Below, piece after piece: positions 1 to 54,300 of a DNA stretch of 64,000 nucleotides. Source of the DNA: Squalus acanthias. Its lineage: Eukaryota. Position numbers and translations under genes: made by a program. The stretch spans positions 137,950,001-138,014,000 of the forward strand of contig CM059428.1 of assembly GCA_030390025.1 (NCBI GenBank), in the 5' to 3' direction. A model generated the notes under the pieces. It made no database searches and was not told the origin of the DNA. It saw only the letters and a program-made list of their open reading frames with translations. The first letter of the stretch is position 1. Every line of letters starts with the position of its first letter.

Positions 1-715
1 GAGGCCTGGACTAATGATTCAGAGACGTGAGTTGAAATCCCACCACAGTAGCTGGAGAATTTAAATTCAGTTAATTAAATAAATCTGGAATAAAAGGCTA
101 GTAACAGTAATGGTGATCATGAAACTACTGGATTGTTGTTAAAAACCCATCTGGTTCACTAATGTCCTTTAGGGAAGGAAATCTGCCGTCCTTACCTGGT
201 CTGGCCTATATGTGACTCCAGACCCACAGCAATGTGGTTGACTCTTAACTGCCCTCTGAAATGGCCTAGCAAGCCATTCAATTGTACCAAACCGCTACGA
301 AAAACAATAATAAGAATAAAACCGGACTGACCACCCGGCATCGACCTAGGCACCAGCTTCGGACACAACAACTGCACACCCAGCCCAGTCGATCCTGCAA
401 AGTTCTCCTCACTAACATCTGGGGACTTGTGACCACATCGAAGGACAAGGGCAGCAGGCGCATGGGAACACCACCACCTCCAATATCCCCTCCAAGTCAC
501 ACACCATCCTGACTTGGAAATATATCACTGATCCTTCATCGTCGCTGGGTCAAAATCCTGGAACTCCCTCCCTAACAGCACTGTGGGAGTACCTTCACTG
601 CACGGACTGCAGCGGTTCAAGAAGGTGGCTCACCACCACCTTCTCAAGGGCAATTAGGGATGGGCAATAAATACTGGCCTTGCCAGCGATGCCCACATCC
701 CAGGAACAAAAAAAA
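1..715 (+). mobile_element. Internally deleted non-LTR element (tRNA-like head, first codons of APE endonuclease, LINE 3' end and A tail); 5' end cut by the window edge
   Basis: B-box-like GTTGAAATCC at 30-39. About 120-430 is homologous to 8384-8670 in this window and reads LLTNIWGLV (endonuclease N-terminus). The sequence then jumps to a LINE 3' end finishing in GCCCACATCCCAGGAAC plus an A run. Confidence 0.75.
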
Positions 716-2126
716 TCTGTTCCAACCCCTCTGCCAGTGCTAGAAGATTATTAACACTGTCATTGTTGCTCTTCTCCTTACAATGCACTAGCCAGAGCTG
801 GGCGTTGCTCCTAATTATTGAAAATAACAGCAGGAAACTTGTAAAAGTTTTATTTGAAAGTTTTATTTACATTGATATTACCGGCAGAGCCCTGTATTTA
901 GTACGAGGCTATGACACCCAACCTACAGTTAGTTCTCAGCAAGGTATGCTAAAGTATACTTTACTGTTGCACTTATAAACTTGGACCTAAGATCTTTTTG
1001 CAAATGATGCCTTACTATATACTAACACCCCATACAAACCAAAATCTATTTAACTTGTTTTTAGGATGAGTCAGCAGAGTTTACTGTTAACTGTGGTTAT
1101 TAAGGAACCGTATCACTGAATCTCATCTGACAACTGGATAACCCGGTCATAAACCTTCCAGAAGATATGTCAGCTTGACTCTCTGCATGGGATTATTACC
1201 TTGTGACTGATTCACAATTATTAACTACTTTTTTGCCAAACTAAAACTATGTCTAAAGTTCAGTAAAATGTGATGTAAATGTAATGTTATGAGATATGCA
1301 GGAGCAGATCAGGATCATTTTCTTTCCTTTCTTATGAGAAAGAGCACAACCTCTGCTCTGCATCTCCCTCTGATGACACAGCTGAAATCAGAGTTTGCAT
1401 GTAGAGAACTGAAGAACAATTCCCAGTCCTACCCTTCATTTAAACAGTACCTTGGTACAATAACAGGTTCTATCTTCTACCGATAATACTATACCACCTT
1501 CTACCTACTACTCTAAACACAATACAGTAATTCTATCCAGAAACAAAATGAAATATTCCAAGTCTAAGTCTATTTTCCTCTAGTTCTGCAAGCACTTTGC
1601 CAGGGTCTGTTCTGGACGTGTCTCTTGCTGCCTATACTTGGGGACAATCAGAAAATGAAACATTCTAGCATGCTCATTTTACCGGTTTCGAATGCTCTTT
1701 TCCAGTATCCTGACTTACAGGTTTTACTGATCTTGACAGAGCCATGATGTGGCTGCATTCCTCTAGAATGTTAAAAGATTCCAAGTTAGGCGCCAGCACA
1801 CTAAATGGAAGATAGTTAACCACCTCAGCTGTAGCTTTTACTATCGGATCTCCCAATTTTTTTAACTGACCTATTTTCTAAAAAATTTTTGAGTCTGAGC
1901 CACACATCATCCTGATTGAGAAAACAGATGGGAATCCTCTTACCTCAGCCAATGCTAATCTGTGTTTTCTGCTTGGTATGGAATGATGGCCCAAGATAAT
2001 TGGCTTTCCCGTGTTTCCTTTCACCCTGTGGGAAATGCCCAGCCTCTCCATTCTGTGCCCTCCCACTTCTGCTGGAACAAATTACCTCAAAAGTTCGCAA
2101 TGTGGCGAAGATGCAGAGCAGAGGTT

Positions 2127-2639
2127 GCCATGGAAGGAGTTCAGCGAAGATTCACAAGGCCGATACCTGGGATGGCAGGAATGACATATGAGGAGAGATT
2201 GGGTCGATTGGGCTTATACTCGCTGGAGTATAGAAGAATGAGAGGGGATCTCATCGAAACATAAAATTCTGACAGGTCTGGACAAACTAGATGCAGGAAG
2301 AATGTTCCCGATGGTCAGAGAGTCCAGAACCAGGGGTCATAATCTAAGGATAAGGGGTAAGCCATTTAGGACAGAAATGAGGAAGAATTTCTTCACCCAG
2401 AGAGTGGTGAACCTGTGGAATTCTCTACCACAGAAGGTAGTTGAGGCCAAGTCATTAAATATATTCAAGAATGAGTTAGATATATTTCTTAAAGCTAAAG
2501 GTATCAAGGGATATGGGGAGAAGGCAGGTACAGGGTACTGAGTTTGGATGATCGGCCATGATCGTATTGAATGGCGGAGCAGGCTCGAGGGGCTGAATGG
2601 CCTACTCCTGCTCCTATCTTCTATGTTTCTATGTTTCTA
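2127..2639 (+). mobile_element. 5'-truncated CR1 LINE (RT C-terminus and 3' UTR)
   Basis: Translates EGVQRRFTRPIPGMAGMTYEERLGRLGLYSLEYRRMRGDLIET...FFTQRVVNLWNSLP, homologous to 14088-14507. Ends in the CR1 tail repeat TTCTATGT. Confidence 0.93.
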
Positions 2640-2814
2640 AGTGCAACTGCCAGTCATATCTTTACCATTCCATAGCATAGCAATGTGCTACTTCCAGATC
2701 AGACGAGTGGTATAATGGAGTCAGGGATCACATGATGGTTATCATGGCAATTGAAGTCATTATGCATATCTCTCATTCAGCCACTACACTTCTGCCTTCT
2801 GGAATTCTCAGATC

Positions 2815-3008
2815 TTTCTGCGTTGGCACCTCCCTCCTTGCTTTCAAAAATCTCTTTAAAACCATACTCTTTGACTGTGTCTTCGGTTTACCATCCAGCT
2901 CCTACATTCCTTTCCCTGTTCCCCATGGTTGGTGCTCACGGTATCCTTTTCCTCAGTATTGTGAACATCTTCCTGCACGCGAGGAGTTCTATATAAATGA
3001 AAGTTGTT
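2815..3008 (+). mobile_element. Decayed L2-type LINE 3' tail
   Basis: CTCTTTAAAACCATACTCTTTGAC...CTATATAAATGAAAGTTGTT resembles 8075-8230. Confidence 0.55.
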
Positions 3009-4322
3009 CTTTCTCTCCATGATCCATAACCATTCACCACAGCAGTTCTCCACCTCTGACATCCTACACCTAAATTTACTTGCGGCTTGAGGCACATTCC
3101 CAGTGTAAATTGGCTGGGAGTACAATATAGGGGAAGTGAAATCAAGTGGGACCCATATATGCCAGGTCTCCTCCCAGGCTGACAGTATCCGATGGGGCCC
3201 GGGACAGCTGGAAGTTCCATCCACTGCAAACATGGCTACCTGACACAAAAGGTGGAGGAGATGGCAGGAGGGATATCCCACACCAGAATTCCCTTGGCTC
3301 CTGCTTCCCATCCATCCTGTGATTTGATTGCTGGGAAGAATCCGACATCCAGGTCACTTGAGCAGAAGAAACAGACCAAAGTAATGGCCTGAAAGACCCT
3401 GAAAATGCTGCCAGCATTTTCTCTTGATTGGCCTTATTATAGGGATAGGGGTGGGGTTGATCAGCGATAGAGTTTCCACTTTTGGAGCGGCCCCACCAGT
3501 GGCACTCCCAGCCAGCTATCTAGCACTGCATCTTCACCCACACCTCCCTGCAGACACCTAAGATGCACTCATACTAGATTGGAATGTCCACCGACAATAT
3601 CAAGGTGAGCTGACTTTGCCCTGACCCCGGATGCTCCAGTAGGCTCAGGAGCGAAGGTCGGCAGCACCCACTCTGCCACTTATGCTTGCGGAGTGGACCC
3701 AAGAATTTTCAGAGACACTATCTTCACCTTCAAATTACAGTGGTATCACACTCGTTGGGAACCTGTGCCACTGACCCCGGCAGATTTTCCAGGGTCAGGG
3801 CAGAGGTTCCCTATTTTTCACACTGATGGTGGGTACCCACACCATTAGAGGCACATTTCGGGTGCCCACCTGCCCAATTCGCAGGGAAATTGGATGATTG
3901 GTACTGTGTCTCAAAAAGAATGCAGATGTCCCCTCTGTCCCCTTTGCAAGGGGATCGCATTTAAATAACAATAAAGCTGCTTACTGTTTTACTTGGAAAT
4001 CCAGACCACGTTTCTGGCCTGGACATTCCAGGTGGGGCCCAAATGTGCCTTTCAGTGGGCCAGTACACTATGTCTAACCAGGTATACTGCTCCCAATCTT
4101 ATGCCGGTCTATCCGAGAGCCAATGATGCTGGAACTCCAGATGTTGTTCCCTCCAGCCTAATTTCCGACTCACTCCTGCTTGAGTTACATTTGGACTGTA
4201 CCAGAAGGACCAAGGATTTTCATCTGCCATGTGTGAGCCTGGGCAATGAATATTAGCGAGCTATTTCATCTTTGGCAGGGGGACGAGTCACACATGAGTC
4301 CAATCTGTCTTATACCCATACA

Positions 4323-5305
4323 AAATTGAGAGGTCGCACAACACCAGGTTATAGTCCAACAGTTTTATTTTAAATCACAAGCTTTCGGAGTTACAACTCC
4401 TTCGTCGGGTGAAGTGAGGAGATACAGAATCGTCAAAGCATATATAGATACAGAACAATGCATGTGTAACTTACAATTGCAGACAACTAAATTCAATCAT
4501 CCTGACTGTTTATCTGCCGAGGTGTGATAAAGTTAATCAGGTCAGCCAGGAAGGTACCACATCAAAGACATAGCAAGATACAACTGAGACAATGAAGTGG
4601 AGTCGCATGGGGTCTAACGTGTCAAAAGCTGCCGTCTGTATGTAAAACGATTAACTTTAAAATTTTTACTTTTTTACTGGGAATCACATCTGTGAACAAG
4701 CCAACGACGACTCGAGTCCGGATCACGTCATGTATCGTGACATAAACCCAAGATCCCGATTGAGACCGTCTTCATGAGTGCGGAACTTGGCTATCAGTTT
4801 CTGCTCGATGATTTTGCGTTGTCGTGTTTTCCTAAGGCCGCCTTGGAGAACGCTTACCCGCAGATCCGAGGCTGAATGTCCTTGACTGCTGAAGTGTTCC
4901 CCGACTGGGAGGTAACAATCCTGCCTGGCGATTGTTGCACGGTGCTCGTTCATACGTTGTCTCAGTGTCTGCATGGTCTCGCCGATGTACCATGCCGCGG
5001 TGCATTCTTTCCTGCAACGTATGAGGTAGACAACGTTGGCCGAGTCACATGAGTATGTACCATGTACCTGGTGGGTAGTGTCCTCACGTGTGATGATGGT
5101 ATCTGTGTTGATGATCTGGCATGTCTTGCAGAGTTTGCTGTGGCAGGGTTGTGTGGTGTCGTGGTCACTGTTATCCTGAAAGCTGGGTAATTTGCTGCGA
5201 ACGATGGTACTTCTGAGGTTAGGCGGCTGTTTGAAGGCGAGTAGTGGAGGCGTGGGGATGGCCTTAGCGAGGTGTTTGTCGTCATCGATGACATGTTGAA
5301 GGCTG
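4323..5305 (-). mobile_element. 5'-truncated Penelope-like element (Neptune type) with a 12-bp TSD
   Basis: TATACCCATACA is duplicated at 4311-4322 and 5306-5317. Contains a GIY-YIG reading frame and a pseudo-LTR end at 4323-4420 that is shared with 17135-17330. Confidence 0.92.
4723..5305 (-). pseudogene. Penelope polyprotein C-terminus: RT thumb, Cys-rich linker and GIY-YIG endonuclease (no genuine start codon)
   Basis: PPLLAFKQPPNLR, CHSKLCKTC linker, VVYLIRC...WYIGET...LRQRMNEH...IEQKLI...GLNRD. The frame is uninterrupted to the stop at 4723. The ORF-track start (MHVWVY) lies in the TSD and flank. Confidence 0.9.
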
Positions 5306-5425
5306 TATACCCATACATGCATAGCTTCCAGCAGGAATAACTGAGTAGGTAGCAGGAGTAGGAACCTTTACTGACTTAACCCTGAATAACACTGGGGCAC
5401 TAAGAATAACTGCAATGACCTTATT

Positions 5426-5785
5426 GTCAGCCTTGGCTCAGTGGTCGCACTCTCACCTCTAGTTCAGAAGGTTGTGGGTTCAACCCCCACTCTAGAAACT
5501 TGAGCGCTTTGGGACATCCTGAGGTCATGAAAGGCACTATATAAATGCAAGTCTTTCTTTCTTTATAATCTAGGCTGACACTCCAATGCAGACCTGTGCG
5601 AGGACTGCACTGTTGGAGGTACTGGCTGTCGGATGAGGTATTAAACTAAGGCCCATCTACCCTCTCAGATGGATGTAAATGATCCTGTGGCACTATTTGA
5701 AGAAAGGCACGGGAGTTCTCCTGGTGCCCTGGCCAACATTACCCCCCAACCAACACCACCAAAAACAGATATTTATCTCATTCCT
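5426..5785 (+). mobile_element. DeuSINE (SacSINE1/AmnSINE1-like) with a tail fragment inserted in its 5' part
   Basis: A box TGGCTCAGTGG and B box GGTTCAACCCC. Deu-domain-like core GGATGAGGTATTAAACTAAGGCCC...GATCCTGTGGCACTATTTGAAGAA. Tail motif GCGCTTTGGGACATCCTGAGG...AATGCAAGTCTTTCTTT at 5503-5564. Confidence 0.8.
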
Positions 5786-6839
5786 GATTATAGGACTATG
5801 CTGTATAGGTACTATACAAGTGGAATTTCTTTCTTGTCACAATCCAGGCTGAGATCAGCACAGACTGGGAATTGAACCTGGTCTGTGTGGCTCAGTTTTG
5901 TAACGATGAAGCACTTACCAACTGAACCATCAATGACAAAGAAAAAATTATTAAAGTGATTAGTTAGAATGAACAAGACATTTCAAAAGAATAAGGCCAA
6001 AATCAGTACAGTGAAAATAACAGAAATAGGAGAGAGAGAATTGTGAAAAAGGAAAGAAAGGGCAGTCAGTAGTAAGATGTTTACAATTTTCTGTCCTTGC
6101 TTAAATTGTTGTAAGTGTTTATTTTATAGTATAGGTTGATAGTCTGACAAGCTACTGCTAACATGTGAGAAACTTTGGGTCTATTTACATTGCAAGTTTG
6201 CATTTACATTGAAGAACCTACACCAAATTTGCAGTCTGTGTCCAATCTAACTCTGGAACAAAGCTGAACAGGACTCCCTCAGACTGGTAGCTGCAGTGTA
6301 AATGGACATTTTAATTAATGTAATATTTCAGTGGTGCTGTGCAGGTGCTGACAACTTTTTTTAAATGGTCACTTTAGGGAACCTGGAATTCCGTGGAATT
6401 GCTGACGGTCTCAGGATTAAAATTGCCTGTAAAGAAAATCTTCCCTTTTACTATTACAGCGTGCTTTGCTGGAAGGCTTATCAGCAAACATAAGATAAGC
6501 ACCTCTACTAACTGAGAAGGTAAACATATTAAATTACAGAATCACTTTATATTTAAAGAATAAAAAAAGTGAGTTTGCAATAGTTCAACATTTTCTTCAC
6601 AATAACAAAATGTAGTGTGTGTGTTTGTGTGCATGCATATGTGTGTCTGTATGGAGGAGGTTACTGGAGCCTTCCACTTCCAACGATGAGGCAACTTAAA
6701 ATCAATTTTAAAATTCAGTCTAACCTAGCCTACCAGGTGTACTTAATCTATTTGAGAAGCAAAGCTCTCAGTAAATAGATTGCCTCTGGAAAATAAACAG
6801 AACTTTCAAAAGAGACACAATTAAGTACATAACATACAG

Positions 6840-9649: not shown

Positions 9650-9814
9650 CTTTTACAGCGGCGGACCTGGGCGAGAAGTGAGTGGAGCAGCGAGGCTATA
9701 AAGCCTGCGGTATCCAGGTAGGCCCCTCTTTTACAGCGGCGGACCTGGGCGAGAAGTGAGTGGAGCAGCGAGGCTATAAAGCCTGCGATATCCAGGTAGG
9801 CCCCTCTTTTACAG
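9650..9814 (+). repeat. 78-bp tandem repeat (2 copies plus 9 bp) at the CR1 5' end
   Basis: Units start at 9650, 9728 and 9806 with one mismatch. Each unit has CTATAAA, GTGAGT, CAG/GTAGG and CTTTTACAG. Confidence 0.95.
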
Positions 9815-9972
9815 GGTGATTGCTTTAATAGTGCGGGTCGCAGTGGTTGCTGGGTAAGTGTTTTTTTTTTACCTGTATATAAGTTGGGCGGTTTCTAAAC
9901 CCGAGACACTACACTTGTAGTGTCCCCCACCCTTCCACCTCCTCTAACCTAAAGGGGGTGAGTGTATATCAG

Positions 9973-10329
9973 GAGGCCCGGTGAGTATCTAAACTCACTT
10001 TCGCGGTTTTTTTTTTTTTTTTCCAGAGGCTGGTGTCGGGAGCGGAGAGAGCCGAGGCCCGGTGAGTATCTAAACTCACTTTCGCGGGCTTTTGTTTGCA
10101 GAGGCTGGTGTCGGGAGCGGAGAGAGCCGAGGCCCGGTGAGTATCTAAACTCACTTTCGCGGGCTTTTGTTTGCAGAGGCTGGTGTCGGGAGTGGAGAGA
10201 GCCGAGGCCCGGTGAGTATCTAAACTCACTTTCGCGGGCTTTTGTTTGCAGAGGCTGGTGTCGGGAGCGGAGAGAGCCGAGGCCCGGTGAGTATCTAAAC
10301 TCACTTTCGCGGGCTTTTGTTTGCAGAGG
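9973..10329 (+). repeat. 75-bp tandem repeat (4 full copies plus 1 partial) in the CR1 5' UTR
   Basis: Units start at 9973, 10054, 10129, 10204 and 10279. The first unit has a poly-T expansion and the rest are nearly identical. Confidence 0.97.
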
Positions 10330-10615
10330 TTTATCAATCTCAGACCGGCGGCGGCGTTCCAGAGCCACGTCACGATTCAAAACGTGACGTGGGCAGGAGG
10401 GAGCGGCTGATTGGGTGAGTACGGCAGGTTAGTATTTATACTACTTTATAGTTTGATAGTTAAGGTTCATAGTTTATAAAGTTTCAAAGATCTTAATTTT
10501 GTGATTATAATTTCTAGTGCTAGTAACCAAGGGCCCTTGAGTAATTCATTTAATTGAGTGAAATTGGTGGTATTGATTTGATTTAATTAAAGTTCAATTA
10601 ATTAAAGGGTAAGTC

Positions 10616-11563
10616 ATGGCAGGACAGCCCAGCCCCGTGTTATGCTCCTCCTGCTCTATGTGGGAAATCAGGGACCCTTCCAGTGTCCCTGACGACCATG
10701 TGTGCGGGAAGTGTATCCAGCTGCAGCTACTGACAGACCGCATTGCGGCGCTGGAGCTGCGGCTGGATGCATATTGGAGCATTCGCGATGCTGAGAACCT
10801 CGTGGATAGCACGTTTAGAGAGTTGGTCACACCGCAGGTGAAGGGTGTACAGGCAGGAAGGGAATGGGTAACCACCAGGCAGAGTAGGAGGTGCAGGCAG
10901 GTAGTGCAGGGGTCCCCTGTGGCCATCCCCCTCTCAAACAGATATACCGCTTTGGATACTGTTGGGGGTGATGACTTAGGGGAAGGCAGCAGCAGCCAAC
11001 TTCCTGGCACCATGGGCGGCTCTGCTGCACAGGCTGGGAGGAAAAAGAGTGGAAGAGCTATAGTGATAGGGGACTCAATTGTAAGGGGAACAGATAGGCG
11101 TTTCTGCAGCCGCAACCGAGACTCCAGGATGGTGTGTTGCCTCCCTGGTGCAAGGATCAAGGACGTCTCGGAGCGGCTACAGAACATTTTGGAGGGGGAG
11201 GGCGAACAGCCAGCTGTCGTGGTGCACATAGGCACCAACGATATAGGTAAAAAAGGGGATGAGGTCCTAAAAGCAGAATATAGGGAGTTAGGAGGTAAAT
11301 TAAAAAATAGGACCTCAAAGGTAGTAATCTCAGGATTGCTACCAGTGCCACGTGCTAGTCAGAGTAGAAATAGGAGGATATTTCAAATGAATACGTGGCT
11401 AGAGGAATGGTGCAAGGGGGAGGGATTCAAATTCCTGGGACATTGGAACGGGTTCTGGGTGAGGTGGGACCAGTACAAACCGGACGGTCTGCACCTGGGC
11501 AGGGCCGGGACCGCTGTCCTAGGGGGAGTGTTTGCTAGTGCTGTTGGGGAGGATTTAAACTAA
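10616..11563 (+). CDS. CR1 ORF1p: zinc finger, coiled coil/leucine zipper and SGNH/GDSL esterase domain
   Basis: CSSCSMW...CGKC, LTDRIAALELRL, IGDSIVRG, HIGTND and DGLHL motifs. Intact 315 aa. Confidence 0.93.
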   Translation: MAGQPSPVLCSSCSMWEIRDPSSVPDDHVCGKCIQLQLLTDRIAALELRLDAYWSIRDAENLVDSTFRELVTPQVKGVQAGREWVTTRQSRRCRQVVQGSPVAIPLSNRYTALDTVGGDDLGEGSSSQLPGTMGGSAAQAGRKKSGRAIVIGDSIVRGTDRRFCSRNRDSRMVCCLPGARIKDVSERLQNILEGEGEQPAVVVHIGTNDIGKKGDEVLKAEYRELGGKLKNRTSKVVISGLLPVPRASQSRNRRIFQMNTWLEEWCKGEGFKFLGHWNGFWVRWDQYKPDGLHLGRAGTAVLGGVFASAVGEDLN

Positions 11564-14507
11564 TGTGGCAGGGGGTTGGGAACCTGAGCAGGGAGACAGA
11601 GGAAAGCATGTCAGGAAGGGACAGAAGGTATGGAGTAAAAGGTAAAGTGTTAAATAAGGAAAAAGCAGGAAGTAAGTGTCGCAAAACACATTTGAAAGTT
11701 CTTTATCTGAATGCACGTAGCATTCGTAACAAAATGGACGAGTTAACGGCACAAATAACTACGTATGGGTATGATCTTGTGGCCATTACAGAAACATGGC
11801 TGCAGGGTGACAACATCTGGGAATTAAATATGCCAGGGTATTTAACAATCAGGAAGGACAGGCAGGAAGGAAGGGGAGGGGGGGGGGTGGCTATGTTAAT
11901 AAAGGAAGGAATCACTGTAATACAGAGAAATGATATTGGGTCAAAAGATCAGGATAATGAAACAGTTTGGGTAGAGATAAGGAATAATAAGGGGAAAAAA
12001 ACACTGGTGGGCGTAGTATATAGGCCTCCTAATAGTTGCAACTCTGTTGGAAGAAGTATTAATCAGGAAATAGTTGGGGCATGTAATAAGGGAACAGCTA
12101 TAATTATGGGGGATTTTAACTATCATATTAACTGGACAAATCAAATTGGGCAGGGCAGCCTTGAGGAAGAGTTTATTGAGTGTCTTAGGGATGGATTTCT
12201 TGAGCAGTATGTAACTGATCCTACAAGGGGGCAAGCAACCTTGGACCTGGTACTGTGTAATGAGTCAGGATTAATTAATAATGTCCTAGTTAAGGATCCC
12301 CTTGGAATGAGTGACCATAACATGGTTGAATTCCATATCCAATTAGAGGGTGAGAAGGTTGGTTCTCAAACAAGCATACTGAGCTTGAATAAAGGAGACT
12401 ATGATGGTATGAGAGCAGAATTGATTAAAGTGGACTGGGAAAATAGATTAAAGGGTAAGACGGTACATGAGCAGTGGTGTTCATTCAAGGAGTTATTTTA
12501 CAACTTTCAAAATAAATATATTCCACTGAGGAAAAAAGGGTGTAAAAGAAATGACAGCAATCCATGGCTAAGTAAAGAAATTAAAGAAAGTATCCAACTA
12601 AAAACAAGGACATATAAGGTAGCCAAAGTTAGTGGGAGGATAGAAGATTGGGAAGTCTTCAAAAGACAACAAAAAGTAACTAAAGGATTGATTAAGAAAG
12701 GGAAAATAGACTATGAAAATAAATTAGCAAAAAATATAAAAACAGATAGCAAGAGTTTCTATAGTTATATAAAAAGAAAAAGGGTGGTTAAGGCAAACGT
12801 AGGTCCCTTAGAGGATGAGACCGGGAAATTAATGGTGGGAAACATGGAGATGGCAAAAATGCTGAACAAATATTTTGTTTCAGTCTTTACGGTAGAGGAC
12901 ACTAAGAATATCCCAACACTGGACAAACAAGGGGCTCTAGTGGGGGAGGAGCTAAATACGATTAAAATCACTAAGGAATTGGTACTCAGTAAAATAATGG
13001 GACTCAAGGCGGATAAATCCCCTGGACCTGATGGCTTACATCCTAGGGTCTTGAGGGAAGTGGCAGTAGGAATTGTGGATGCTTTGGTAATAATTTTCCA
13101 AAACTCCCTGAACTCAGCAAAGGTCCCGGCAGATTGGAAAACTGCTAATGTAACACCCTTATTTAAAAAGGGTTGTAGGCAGAAGGCTGGAAATTATAGA
13201 CCAGTTAGCCTAACATCTGTGGTGGGTAAAATTTTGGAGTCTATTATTAAGGAGACAGTAACGGAACATTTAGATAAACATAATTTAATAGGACAAAGTC
13301 AGCATGGCTTTATGAAGGGGAAGTCATGTCTGACAAATTTGCTCGAGTTCTTTGAGGACATAACGTACAGGGTGGATAAAGGGGAACCAGTGGATGTAGT
13401 GTATTTAGACTTCCAGAAGGCATTCGACAAGGTGCCACATAAAAGATTATTACTCAAGATAAAAAAATCACTGGATTGGGGGTAATATTCTGGCATGGGT
13501 GGAGGATTGGTTATCTAACAGGAAGCAGAGAGTTGGGATAAATGGTTCATTCTCGGACTGGCAACCAGTAGCCAGTGGTGTTCCGCAGGGGTCGGTGCTG
13601 GGTCCCCAACTCTTTACAATCTATATTAACGATTTGGAGGAGGGGACCGAGTGTAACATATCAAAGTTTGCAGATGATACAAAGATGGGAGGGAAAGTAG
13701 AGAGTGAGGAGGACATAAAAAACCTACAAGGGGATATAGACAGGCTGGGTGAGTGGGCAGAGATTTGGCAGATGCAATACAATATTGGAAAATGTGAGGT
13801 TATGCACTTTGGCAGGAAAAATCAGAGAGCAAGTTATTATCTTAATGGCGAGAAACTGGAAAGTACTGCAGTACAAAGGGATCTGGGGGTCTTGGTGCAA
13901 GAAAATCAAAAAGTTAGTATGCAGGTGCAGCAGGTGATCAAGAAAGCCAATGGAATGTTGGCTTTTATTGCTAGGGGGATAGAATATAAAAACAGGGAGG
14001 TATTGCTGCAGTTGTATAGGGTATTGGTGAGACCGCACCTGGAGTACTGCATACAGTTTTGGTGTCCATACTTAAGAAAAGACATACTTGCTCTCGAGGC
14101 AGTACAAAGAAGGTTCACTTCGGTTAATTCCGGGGATGAGGGGGTGGACATACGAGGAGAGGTTGAGTAGATTGGGACTCTACTCATTGGAGTTCAGAAG
14201 AATGAGAGGCGATCTTATTGAAACATATAAGATTGTGAAGGGGCTTGATCGGGTGGACGCGGTGAGGATGTTCCCAATGATGGGTGAAACTAGAACTAGG
14301 GGACATAATCTTAGAATAAGGGGCTGCTCTTTCAAAACTGAGATGAGGAGAAACTTTTTCACTCAGAGGGTAGTGGGTCTGTGGAATTTGCTACCCCAGG
14401 AAGCTGTGGAAGCTACTTCATTAAATAAATTTAAAACAGAAATAGACCGTTTCCTAGAAGTAAAGGGAATCAGGGGTTACGGGGAGCGGGCTGGAAATTG
14501 GACATGA
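11563..14507 (+). pseudogene. CR1 ORF2p (APE endonuclease plus reverse transcriptase), broken by two single-base insertions
   Basis: YLNARSIRNK, ITETWL, MGDFN, SDHN; NYRPVSLTS, QHGF, YLDFQKAFDKV, GVPQGSVLGP, FADD. Frameshifts at the A7 run 13461-13467 and TT at 14119-14120. The start overlaps the ORF1 stop (TAATG). Confidence 0.93.
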
Positions 14508-14699
14508 GTTTGAGTTCGGATCGGTCAAGGCCCTGTGGGTGGCGGAGCGGGCCCAGGGGCCGAGTGGCCTGGTCCTGCTCCTACTTCTTGTGTTCTTTAG
14601 AGTTGAGGTTGGATCAGATCAGCCATGATCTCATTGAATGGCGGAGCAGGCTCGAGGGGCCGATTGGTCTACTCCTGCTCCTATTTCTTATGTTCTTAT

Positions 14700-15370: not shown

Positions 15371-16255
15371 GTTTAATAAGAACATAAGAAATAAGAGCAG
15401 GAGTAGGCCATACGGTCCCTCGAGCCTGCTCCACCATTCAATAAGATCATGGCTGATCATCGACCTCAACTCCACTTTCCCGCCTTATCTCCGTATCCCT
15501 TGATTCCCCTAGAGTCCAAAAATATATCTATCTCAGCATTGAATATACTCAAAGACTCAGCATTCACAGCCCTCTGGGGCAGAGAATTCCAAAGATTCAC
15601 AATCCTCTGAGTGAAGAAATTCCTCCTCATCTCAGTCTTAAATAGCCTACCCCTTATCCTGAGACTATGCCCCCTAGTTCTAGACACTCCAGCCAGCGGA
15701 AACAACCTCTCAGCATCTACGCTGTCAATCCCCTTCAGAATCTTGTATGTTTCAATGAGATCACCTCTCATTCTTCAAAACTCCAGAGAGGAGACACCCA
15801 TTCTACACAATCTCGCATCATAGGCCAGCCCTCTCATCCCAGGAATCAATCCAGCGAACCTTCGTTGTACCGCCTCCAAGGCAAGTATATCCTTCCTTAG
15901 ATAAGGAGACCAAAACTGTGCACAGTACTCCAGGTGTGGTCTCGCCAAGGCCCTGTACAATTGTAGCAAGACTTCCTTACTCTTATACTCCAACCCCCTT
16001 GCAATAAAGGCCAACATGCCATTTGCCTTCCTCATTGCTTGCTGCACCTGCATGCTAGCTTTCTGTGTTTCTTGCACAAGGACACCCAAATCTCTCTGAA
16101 CACCAACATTCGAAACTTTCTCACCATTTAAAAAATATTCTGTTTTTCTATTCTTCCTATCAAAGTGAATAACCTCACATTTCCCTACATTATACTCCAT
16201 CTGCCACCTTACTGCCCACTCATTTAGTCTATCTATATCCCTTTGCAGACTATTT

Positions 16256-49900: not shown

Positions 49901-51380
49901 AGAGGCGTTTGCAGAAGAAAATCGTGTGATCACAAAAGCCACTACTTAAAGCTAGTGTCGACGTGGAGACTATCTCAAGGAGAGCCGAAAAACGATGATG
50001 TGCGCTGTGTTAGGGCTCATTTGAAATGGCGGTGAGATTTGCATGTTTAGATTGCTCAGATCGTCCTCCGATCGTGATTGCGTTGTAGGTTTTAAATTTG
50101 CGATATTTCCACATGACCGCCGTGGTTCCCCCACAGAAGCTCGCTCTATTTTCGGTCCTTTGGCAAAATGCCAAGTGTAACCCAAGTTGCTATAGTAACT
50201 GCAAGAATTGCCGAGTATGGGCACCAGCAGACGTCAATTTGCCTTTTTGATCATTAAGAATGGACCTCGTGTAGTACACGAGCATTATTTTATTTATTAA
50301 ATTTGTAACGGGTCAGCTTTGGTAATCTGCATCGCATCACATTGCACCCCGATGTTCATTAAAATATTTCCAACGAACATGTAATTGCCGGAAATGGCTT
50401 TATAGAACACAATTCTTCCTGTTTCGCTTTACGCGGGGCTATAGAATCGTCGGTTTAATGTCAGGCATAAAACGCGTGATTGCAAATCCAGATGCGATGA
50501 TCCCTGTAATACAAAAGTGTTCTGCTAAATAAATAGTCGCTTTGTCCTATTACAAATTTTCATCTATTCCGACGCGTCTGAAAACGGCGTAAATATGAGC
50601 CCAAAGGCATGTGGGTTTCACGGAAAGAAGTGTGTTTTGATACAGCCGCCTTGTATCTGGAAGTAAAGTCTAGAAAAGGCGGTTTTGTTATGCTTAAACA
50701 TGAAGGAAACAAAGCCAACAAGAACGATCGGGAGTGCTATTCAAAATTCATTGTCATAAACCTGCATGTGGTTGGTTTGTGGTTTTTTATTATTAATCAC
50801 CGTGGAGGTCAGAGGAAAGGTGGTCTGTATAAGATCATCTTAAAGTCTGTTTGATTACGAAAATGATTCACTGTGCCTTTCAATGGATTCGCCACTTTGC
50901 ATTAATTGGGTGCGATTTGGCACATGCAGTACGGTTTTTACAACTCTTCATATACAACTCCTGTGCTTCAGCTTGTCAGTATTTCAGTAAAAGCGATTCT
51001 TAGCTTTGGGGATAGCAATATTTTTACAAAGCGGTTTTGTTTTACAAATTTGCCAATTAAGACTAAGTCAACCGAGGGACGAGAAATGCCAGAATATTGA
51101 TTCCCTGATACTTCGCGCGAACATTTTAAGTTAATGTTGTTTCATAAATTATAAATTGTTGATCATTGTGGTTTAAAAAAAAATTGTATCTTGCTATTGT
51201 GGATACGAACAGTTGTTTAGCTCAATGATTGTATCCTACTTATAATGTGGGCCAATTACAATAAACCAAGCCAGTGAACTTAATATGGAGTGGAATTCCA
51301 GAATAGAGAAAAAACTATTCCTTTTACACGCGCGTTATATTTCTGTTCAGCTTTCAGAACGCGGCCATTTTAGTCAGAAA

Positions 51381-54300
51381 ATGCACCGAACAACACGAAT
51401 CAAAATAACAGAACTGAATCCTCATTTGATGTGTGTGTTGTGTGGAGGATACTTCATAGATGCAACAACCATCATTGAGTGTCTACATTCATGTAAGTAT
51501 ATTGACACGCTGCAGCTCAGCAGGCCGCTTGCTTATGTTAGGAATGAGAAAACAGCACTATTAAGTATTAACGTATATCAACAAAGGTGTCACAGAACGT
51601 TTCTTGTTACCAAGTCAACCACTGCAACCGATTTATGTATAACCGCACACGATTCCTGCTTTTATTCACAGTTTGCAAGACCTGCATCGTCCGTTACTTG
51701 GAAACGAGCAAGTACTGTCCTATTTGCGATGTGCAAGTTCACAAAACTAGGCCCCTTCTTAACATTAGGTATGTATCCGTGTACTTATGGTGATCATAAT
51801 ATTTGATTACACCGTTAAATGTGTTGCTGTGGGAAGTGTGATTGAACTACTGTACTACACGGAGCTGATATACGTGTTAGATTGACAAAAATACAATTAT
51901 CAAACTACACACATGATACGTATTTGTAATTGTATGTTGGTTAGTGAGACAATTTCACGTAATACATTTCTAAACTGCAGGGCCTGTCGTGCAGTACTAC
52001 TTGAAGATAATGAATGTGCTTTATTAAACGTTTATCATTTGATTATCTCACCCACTTATTATGGATATTTTGTAAACTGGAATCTAAGAAAATGGTAATT
52101 CTGTTTTATTGGTATTAAAACTTCTCATTTGAAAGTAGTTGACAATAATTGAATAAAGAATGTGGGGTTTTTCAAATTCTGTTTTGATACAAATACACAA
52201 TTTGGAAAACTTTGGCAGTAGCTCCAAGAATTGAGATCATATAATGCTCAGTGATAATATTCAGCACTATTCTAGAAATACCGTACAGTCATTTCAACCG
52301 AATAAGTGGATGTTTCTGCTGAGTGAACTGAACTTGGAAATGTTTGCCTTTTTTAGTTATGTTAACTGATAATTAAAAAGAATAACTGAATAAATTTGCT
52401 GCAAGTTTTGTTAAAGTGAGCACCTTTTGCTCAAGTTGCCCAATCAATCAGGTTTACTAATTTGAAACATTTTATGAAAAAAATCTCCAATTACAGTCCA
52501 AAGTAAGCATGGAACAGTGCCACAGGCTTTATTCTGCCAGTTCTTACAAAGTTTAGACAAAACCATGGCAAACTTGATTCACTAAATTTAGTTCTACTAT
52601 TACTCTACTAAAAGAAAATGATATTGAATATGTGATAGAAAATGTTCCTGTGGCATTGCAAAATATATCTAATATATATTTAAAACTTTTATAGGTCGGA
52701 TAATATAATGTATAAATGAATAAACATGATGCAAGGCTCAATATTTTTCTGATCTGTTCTAAAAATACAAATCGTTCCACCCCAGTTACTCAATACACAC
52801 ATCTCCAGAACTGAAATTGAAAACTCAGATATATATCTAGTTGCTCCAGTTAATAACTACATAAGCAATCAATTATCAATTGAATAAACCTTATAAATTC
52901 CTGTTAAGTGAACACTTTTCACCAAAAATGACAGCATTTACTATGTTTACAGACTACATAGCTCCACTTGTGTAGTATTTCTATAATCTAACAAACGACA
53001 ACATATGTAAAGGACCAAAAGTGAGAAATAGTTTGCATTTTGGAATACTGTTGTGTTCAAATAAAGTGAACAGTTATTTGGCATTCACATAAATTAGTTC
53101 TACTATTACTTGTGCAGATAGAAGTGGTATTGATGAATGCTATGTGGAATAAAATGACGTGGAATAAAATCTTTCTGTAGTGTTGTAAAATATGACTGTT
53201 GTGATGATAATTGATAATTAATTGACTGTTGTGATCAAATCCTTTTTAGGTCAGATAAGACTTTACAAGATATTGTGTATAAATTAGTTCCTGGCCTTTT
53301 CAAAGGTAAGCACAGTAGTCTGTTTATAAGACAAATTTACATTTGAATTGAATTCCTCTTTCTGTCAATTAGATGACTAATAGGCTTTTGTCTTTATAGA
53401 TGAAATGAAACGTAGAAGGGATTTCTATGCTGCTCATCCCTCTGCTGCTGGTTAGTGTGTGCTACGAAAATGTAGTGATTTTTCCCTAACAAACATAATA
53501 CTAGAATATTTTTGAAAAAGGATAGGTTTTAGTCACCAGTAGAAATATTCAATTGTTTTCACAAAATAGTAAAGTGATACTTTTTTAAAGATTTTCAGCA
53601 TTTATGTCGGTGTGGTGCATTTCTTCCACTAATTTTTGTTATACATTTTGTAAATGGTTTTTAGTTTTGAAAACTCTTAACTTTAGAGTGTAGTTGTTGC
53701 TATCATTTTTAAAAAATCTATGTCTAATCAGATAAAAATGAATTTATAGTTGCATTGGAGACTATTCTGCTTAGGCCCACACTTGTGTTACATTTTTACT
53801 TTTTCTGTTAAGTTGGTACATATCAGGATAATTTTATGCTGTTATTCCTTTAGAGTTCACACCAAAATTGTCAGTATGGCAAAGTTAATCTTTCAGTTAA
53901 TACCAGTGTAATTTACTCTCTGCTCTTAGAACTGTTTAAACTGTCTTAAATGAAATCTAAAATAGCATGCTTCCTAGCTGCTAAAAGTATAAAATATGTG
54001 AAAAATGAGCCACGGATTTAAGTGTTTTCTAATGTACAACTTTCCTTTGACACCTTGTAGTCCCAAAATAATATAAGAATTATATTTGCTGATGATTTAT
54101 GTTCTAAATTAGTATTGAAGCATTGATTAATTGGCTCTAAGTACATGAAAATATTCTGAAATCATTGCTTCTTTAATATTCAAAATTGTACAGCAGCAAA
54201 TGGCTCTAATGAAGACAGGGGAGAAGTTACAGAAGAAGAAAAGAGGATTATAACAGATGATGAAATCATTAGCTTGTCAATAGAATTCTATGAACAAAAT

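Follow-up and report, generated by a model that had tools for sequence, protein, structure and literature searches.

Tandem monomers with 5' splice sites in the leader of a CR1 retrotransposon of Squalus acanthias and their apparently spliced genomic copies

The leader of a CR1-type LINE in Squalus acanthias carries an array of splice sites that, judged from the sequences of its genomic copies, appears to be real, family-wide, and used. Because 14 independent copies hold 16 exact donor-to-acceptor junctions, drawn from four different donors, the splice signals are likely to function; such copies had been foreseen in the original prediction, which also called the signals non-productive, a description that sites spliced in genomic copies contradict. 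The sequence features of the leader units favor a reading as tandem promoter monomers over one as mini-introns.

The element lies on the plus strand of the window (the whole 64,000-nt stretch analyzed), is near full-length (9650 to ∼14699), and is nested in an older repeat. Its 5' boundary at 9650 is supported by an empty-site-like copy of that host repeat in locus L195, relative to which ∼8 nt of target were lost upon insertion and no target duplication was made. Pfam matched both apurinic-type endonuclease and reverse transcriptase domains in ORF2, and these domains, together with a resemblance to CR1 elements, suggest the assignment to CR1. The window copy itself is unspliced, and its ORF2 is frameshifted over three frames. 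The stop of ORF1 overlaps the start of ORF2 in a TAATG at 11561–11565, an arrangement that suggests stop-restart translation. Elsewhere in the window, a 199-aa ORF at 4723–5322 (minus strand) has a weak GIY-YIG match slightly under the Pfam cutoff and a resemblance that we take to be Penelope-like. A second CR1-like ORF2 fragment at 15775–16200 (minus strand) is similar by eye to positions 13685–14170 and had no match in a Pfam search. The ORF at 51285–51806 (plus strand), likewise with no Pfam match, has one stretch that we take to resemble the start of a BMI1/PCGF RING protein and probably represents a host-gene exon, ∼36 kb downstream from the CR1 element.

Table 1. Features of the CR1-type element (window coordinates).
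Feature	Position	Strand	Evidence or remark
A monomers, 78 bp x2.1, comprising a likely initiator, a first exon of ∼30 nt, and two donors with a TATA box between them	9650..9814	+	Tandem-repeat analysis; 5' ends
A1 donor GAA/GTGAGT, repeated at 9756	9678..9683	+	Exact join to B acceptor in L046
TATAAA box, repeated at 9775	9697..9702	+	5' ends of copies 29–40 nt downstream
A2 donor CAG/GTAGG, repeated at 9793; most used donor	9715..9722	+	8 copies joined to B acceptor
Pyrimidine run + ACAG, inferred initiator/start region	9726..9736	+	5' end clustering; no junction into site
C donor TGG/GTAAGT, then complementary stretch (weak predicted hairpin)	9854..9859	+	B-acceptor junctions in L063, L087
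D donor GGG/GTGAGT	9958..9963	+	No junction among 80 loci
B monomers, 75 bp x4.7, with a donor, the TATA-like TATCTAAA, ACTCAC, a pyrimidine tract, a CAG acceptor, and an exon of 35 nt	9973..10329	+	Repeats, junctions
Regulatory-motif-like stretch	10366..10414	+	Read from sequence
E/E2 donor doublet (GTGAGT; CAG/GTTAGT)	10415..10433	+	E2 is GTAAGT or GTGAGT in related families
F donor AGG/GTAAGT, immediately upstream of ORF1 ATG	10609..10614	+	Present in family 3 too
ORF1, GDSL/SGNH esterase, 315 aa	10616..11563	+	PF13472, E=8e-13
ORF2, endonuclease + reverse transcriptase	11563..14504	+	PF03372, PF14529, PF00078
3' UTR + short repeat tail	14505..14699	+	Older host repeat resumes beyond

The 966-nt leader (9650–10615) contains 11 GTRAGT motifs and no ATG, together with CAG/GTAGG twice (CAGGTAGG at 9715 and 9793) and CAG/GTTAGT (CAGGTTAGT at 10425); the original prediction had listed these motifs and the lack of ATG, and all 11 GTRAGT positions were verified. 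Against 5000 dinucleotide shuffles, 0.73 donors and 8.7 ATGs would be expected. Because five of the 11 donors are tandem-repeat copies, only six are distinct (six in sense vs. one in antisense), and the enrichment remains significant even when the repeats are collapsed: in the resulting 620-nt leader there are 6 donors vs. 0.56 expected, a number that none of the 5000 shuffles reached, and 0 ATGs vs. 6.2 expected (P=0.0004). The 4075-nt element body has only two donors. The absence of ATG could reflect ordinary selection for scanning to ORF1. In the stretch upstream of the E donor lie what we take to be CRE- and E-box-like motifs and a reverse CCAAT-like motif. In the 75-bp unit, every donor has its reverse complement, ACTCAC, downstream, giving a weak predicted hairpin (z −1.3 to −1.8); predicted folding of the leader's donor hairpins did not go beyond that of shuffled sequence, and masking of donors by hairpins was set aside for that reason.

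The unit repeats and splice motifs stand much as first described, except that the segment of the first 75-bp unit is 46 nt long (9981–10026) and ends in TCCAG, rather than being 40 nt and ending in TGCAG; what had been overlooked are the TATA boxes and an organization resembling promoter monomers. A leader/ORF1 query of the genome gave 3537 candidates, of which 40 were scored (98–100% identity), the exact donor pattern of the 75-bp unit gave 281 matches, and leaders of the window element's family (family 1) were parsed in 80 loci, one per element. These leaders consist, in order, of variable 78/79-bp A monomers, a unique C stretch, variable 73/75-bp B monomers, and a tail. Among the 57 copies that start in an A unit, the A monomers vary in number (0–6 exact A-donor matches per copy), as do the B units. 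After six were dropped (two duplicates, one gap, one inverted end, and two in the last partial unit), 35 of 51 copies were found to start at A positions −2 to +9, i.e., 29–40 nt past the TATA box of the preceding unit (binomial p 2e-17), with the mode at TATA+36, later than a canonical start. The A1 donor follows 28–30 nt after this start region, whose pyrimidine run and ACAG we take to fit the TCT initiator motif. The 78-bp unit had been thought to pair its donor with an acceptor; as copies start there and none of the 80 loci has a junction into it, this site is more likely an initiator.

The same spacing is seen in two further families. Family 3 is a related subfamily whose 30 loci have no A units and start inside a diverged B array. 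After exclusion of the query itself, a locus that was badly anchored, and four duplicates recognized by their flanks, 24 5' ends remained (one read by eye), of which 17 fell within −7 to +4 of the B acceptor, which is 29–40 nt past the TATA-like box (p 4e-9), with the mode at +32. This box overlaps the donor and is a poor TATA (TATCTAAA in the window; TATTTGAA 72 times and TATTTAAA 23 times in family 3). TCACTTT of the 75-bp unit was dropped as a candidate initiator, the family-3 5' ends being at the acceptor register instead. The family-2 leader has only a 32-nt AT-rich patch in common with family 1, and its 294-bp monomer carries motifs that we label CCAAT-like, AP-1-like, and TATAAAAA; 18 of 30 loci start at TATA+32 to +41 of this monomer, with a GTAAGT donor at ∼+66, and a further six have one chimeric flank in common. 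The 5' ends thus fall in one monomer register in families 1, 2, and 3. Because the TATA-to-5'-end spacing is the same in the ancestral 75-bp-type and the 294-bp units, the "acceptors" are likely initiators, and the B monomers are likely an older promoter monomer. Equating a common truncation point with the start site follows the method used for mouse L1 monomers, where, in the cited part of that work, it was checked with CAGE (PMC6454616).

A contig of 66 kb (G000:C775; L118, L119, L248, L249) was composed, in all stretches sampled (1–6000, 24000–30000, and 48000–65985), of head-to-tail 78-bp A monomers of noisy sequence, with no element body within 48000–65985; such a contig could represent a satellite of promoter monomers or else an artefact of assembly. 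Groups of different loci have a foreign 5' flank in common (L002, L003, and L006; L142, L143, L149, L157, L165, and L166), which suggests chimeric subfamilies with a swapped 5' end.

The donor motifs occur family-wide and are seen again in leaders belonging to other CR1 families. A generic pattern (TATAAA, 20–40 nt, two donors) was not enriched genome-wide over a reversed control (440 vs. 590). Among its first 30 matches, six lay in sense 190–680 nt upstream of a CR1 ORF1 and none in antisense; 16 further matches were picked by eye as recurring or similar, of which eight were likewise upstream of a sense CR1 ORF1 and five (L232–L236) represent one repeated family that is not CR1. The ORF1 of the CR1 families with donor-bearing leaders is 30–63% identical to that of the window. 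With the pattern-selected donors excluded, these leaders hold six more vs. 1.8 expected (p 0.01) and none in antisense, and they hold three ATGs vs. 19 expected; for family 2 alone the donor excess is borderline (3 vs. 0.89, p 0.053). Across families, two positions repeatedly carry donor doublets, one following the first exon and one preceding the AT-rich tail, and GTAAGT and GTGAGT are interchanged at equivalent positions, a change that pairing with U1 tolerates. Some of these leaders look like mosaics of common modules and thus do not represent entirely independent origins. In L213, the donor doublet past the TATA box has grown to a GAGT tetranucleotide run with ∼20 consecutive GTGAGT.

Most junctions were recovered by genome patterns. 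A pattern that asked only for the B acceptor yielded the eight A2-to-B copies; after a B donor, six of seven genome-wide matches hit the acceptor register exactly (five independent, one duplicate), and one of four A1 matches was a junction, the other three being noise in a long monomer array. Both C-to-B junctions came from fetched loci, having escaped the pattern search because substitutions broke the pattern; the 24 matches of the C-donor pattern were rejected, as 20 were unrelated sequence when viewed and the other four lacked a B exon continuation. L035 and L037 have two junctions each. The junctions involve both monomer subtypes and different acceptors, the spliced copies are dispersed on different contigs with different flanks, and the 3' end of the element is reached in six of the seven fetched at length, the fetched stretch of the seventh being shorter. 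Junctions from B to B fit the removal of 40 nt or of 40+75n (115+) equally, and unit-type strings do not discriminate between these, while all other junctions each remove ∼170 nt or more. In an unselected set, drawn without regard to junctions (45 elements among the first 100 of the 281 matches, 38 of which, including two flank duplicates, retain A or C sequence), 6 of 38 copies were spliced (∼16%).

The remaining donors gave no such copies: the E-donor pattern had no match for a spliced copy, no D-donor junction occurred among the 80 loci, and none of four F-donor matches was a spliced family-1 copy, so a spliced subgenomic ORF2 message is unsupported. With L030, a natural copy with few repeats, as reference, one contig in one of four runs (X1, depth 18.7), taken from seven runs in two studies that were all only presumed to be RNA (best share 0.42), contained the A2-to-B junction and runs X2, X3, and X6 contained none; because the joined form exists as DNA too and the runs are unverified as RNA, we give this contig no weight. 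Within-family spliced copies were found neither in family 2 nor in 30 family-3 loci. In L170 (G000:C2, ∼113303700, minus strand), the first exon of family 2, spanning the stretch between its inferred start and its donor, is joined exactly to a family-3 acceptor; this is a possible inter-family spliced chimera. It is a single case, and family-3 copies often start at that acceptor anyway.

We consider it fairly probable that the leader is a stack of tandem promoter monomers whose 5' splice sites, close to the promoter, bring in U1 and thereby keep elongation going. With start sites taken from the 5' ends of copies, we infer promoter activity and the retention of donors by U1. Each monomer would place a TATA or TATA-like box 29–40 nt before its likely start and a 5' splice site ∼30 nt after it, the TATA at the end of monomer n firing the start of monomer n+1; copies would thus lose upstream monomers, and duplication would refill the array. 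The 78-bp units may be a newer promoter placed upstream of the older 75-bp units. Once the 75-bp unit is arrayed in tandem, its pyrimidine-rich initiator would serve as a 3' splice site too, the 40-nt "intron" amounting to the donor plus the TATA-to-start spacing, and part of the RNA would therefore be leader-spliced and then retrotransposed. Spliced retrocopies would be the cost of keeping donors, which may be retained because U1 near the start shields the intronless transcript from early termination (Restrictor, premature cleavage). According to the cited portions of two studies, Restrictor is blocked by a sense 5' splice site close to the start in a way that does not require splicing (PMC12211998), and the U1 motif is a directional promoter motif that acts after initiation (10.1101/2023.06.27.546584); sustained elongation of this kind would suit an intronless 5-kb transcript. 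Against a role for U1, the B and C donors may be partly hidden in predicted hairpins. That the array makes the RNA look spliced, as originally proposed, and so evade HUSH is disfavored, because spliced stuffers with splice sites gave no protection in the experiments cited from PMC8770142. A broader proposal, for which the chances seem to us slightly short of even, is that the CR1 promoters of this lineage are built by repetition of a host-like module, made up of a TATA, a start, an exon of 30 nt, and a U1 site, that gives U1-dependent transcription of an intronless genome, with inter-module splicing that remodels leaders and can graft first exons between families, as in L170.

The junctions themselves could be reverse-transcriptase jumps or short-homology recombination instead of splicing. 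The commonest, A2 to B, has a 3-nt overlap (CAG), and in the unselected set six non-splice deletions (L016, L066, L089, L093 twice, and L105) make such events about as frequent as splice junctions; the deletion in L105 also ends at the B exon start, via 6-nt homology. However, the A1-to-B junction has no overlap and the B-to-B and C-to-B junctions have at most 1 nt, the non-splice deletions are all different whereas the splice junctions recur, and neither the exact acceptor register of six of the seven matches after a B donor nor the two copies with two junctions each would be expected of such jumps, which we thus hold to be a very improbable source.

If the junctions are splicing, the leader might contain a selected, productive intron, with spliced RNA as the main ORF1/ORF2 mRNA, unspliced RNA as the genome copy, and repeats and hairpins tuning the ratio. 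Several points would fit: every junction leads into a B acceptor that precedes ORF1, none removes the ORF1 start, spliced copies are frequent, and families 1 and 3 have both retained the branch-like CTCAC, the pyrimidine tract, and the CAG. An intron of this kind nonetheless seems unlikely to us, as four donors and several acceptors are used rather than one intron, several other CR1 leaders have donors and no evident acceptor before ORF1, and in family 3 the 5' ends of copies fall at the acceptor, whose presence then needs no selection for splicing. Conversely, the donors might be by-products of DNA elements, either transcription-factor half-sites or the inverted repeat at the TATA-like box, and their splicing accidental. 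Tandem amplification would inflate any motif, GTGAG and CTCAC do flank the box of the 75-bp unit, and the conserved donor of human L1 lies inside a RUNX3 site, as noted in the cited part of PMC5860796. This we find decidedly unlikely, because the six distinct sense donors (vs. one in antisense), together with CAG/GTAGG and CAG/GTTAGT, lie in contexts unrelated to one another, GTAAGT and GTGAGT replace each other from family to family, and monomers that differ in sequence have the donor at a fixed distance after the inferred start.

CR1 is the dominant retrotransposon in most vertebrates, according to the cited part of a 2026 survey of CR1-group elements (PMC13343379), and how its intronless RNA initiates and escapes early termination is little described. 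The 78-bp unit, with TATA, start, and donor, offers a minimal natural test object for U1-dependent elongation, and the tandemly repeated promoter would illustrate how one sequence can serve as both initiator and splice acceptor. The large proportion of retrocopies that are spliced provides a fossil record of germ-line splicing in a lineage that is hard to study.

In the open-licence literature we found no account of spliced CR1 copies, of CR1 leader splicing, or of CR1 monomers with TATA plus donor. A zebrafish LINE study reportedly describes working splice sites in a fish LINE, presumably ZfL2 elements of the L2/CR1 group, and would be a precedent for splice sites in LINE leaders; its likeness to the present CR1, judged by title alone, bounds any claim to novelty. 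The element resembles canonical vertebrate CR1 in its esterase ORF1 and endonuclease-reverse transcriptase ORF2, and the cited parts of the 2026 survey describe subunits of 100–500 bp that repeat near the 5' UTR in certain elements lacking ORF1 and make no mention of splicing, promoters, or monomers (PMC13343379). Our proposal likens the leader to promoters at which, in the cited passages, a sense donor soon after the start favors productive elongation without splicing (PMC12211998; 10.1101/2023.06.27.546584); those are human and mouse promoters and reporters rather than a LINE, to which the effect would here be extended.

The leader array, which its copies suggest to be real, family-wide, and used, is thus of kinds known from human L1 SpIREs, mouse L1 monomers, and zebrafish LINE splice sites. 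Like the mouse L1Md monomers, as described in the cited parts of PMC6454616 (where splicing is not mentioned), it has variable tandem 5' monomers with a common truncation point equated with the start, duplication offsetting loss; unlike them, its units are of 74–79 bp (294 bp in family 2), and in each a donor stands at a fixed spacing from a TATA or TATA-like box. As in the human L1 SpIREs, to the extent described in the cited parts of PMC5860796, copies of RNA spliced in the 5' UTR appear to have been retrotransposed, and a conserved donor lies near the start. The element here is a CR1, with four donors in use, a repeated acceptor, and donors built into tandem monomers; its spliced copies, in contrast to SpIREs, keep monomers, and they make up 6 of 38 copies vs. 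∼2% for human L1.
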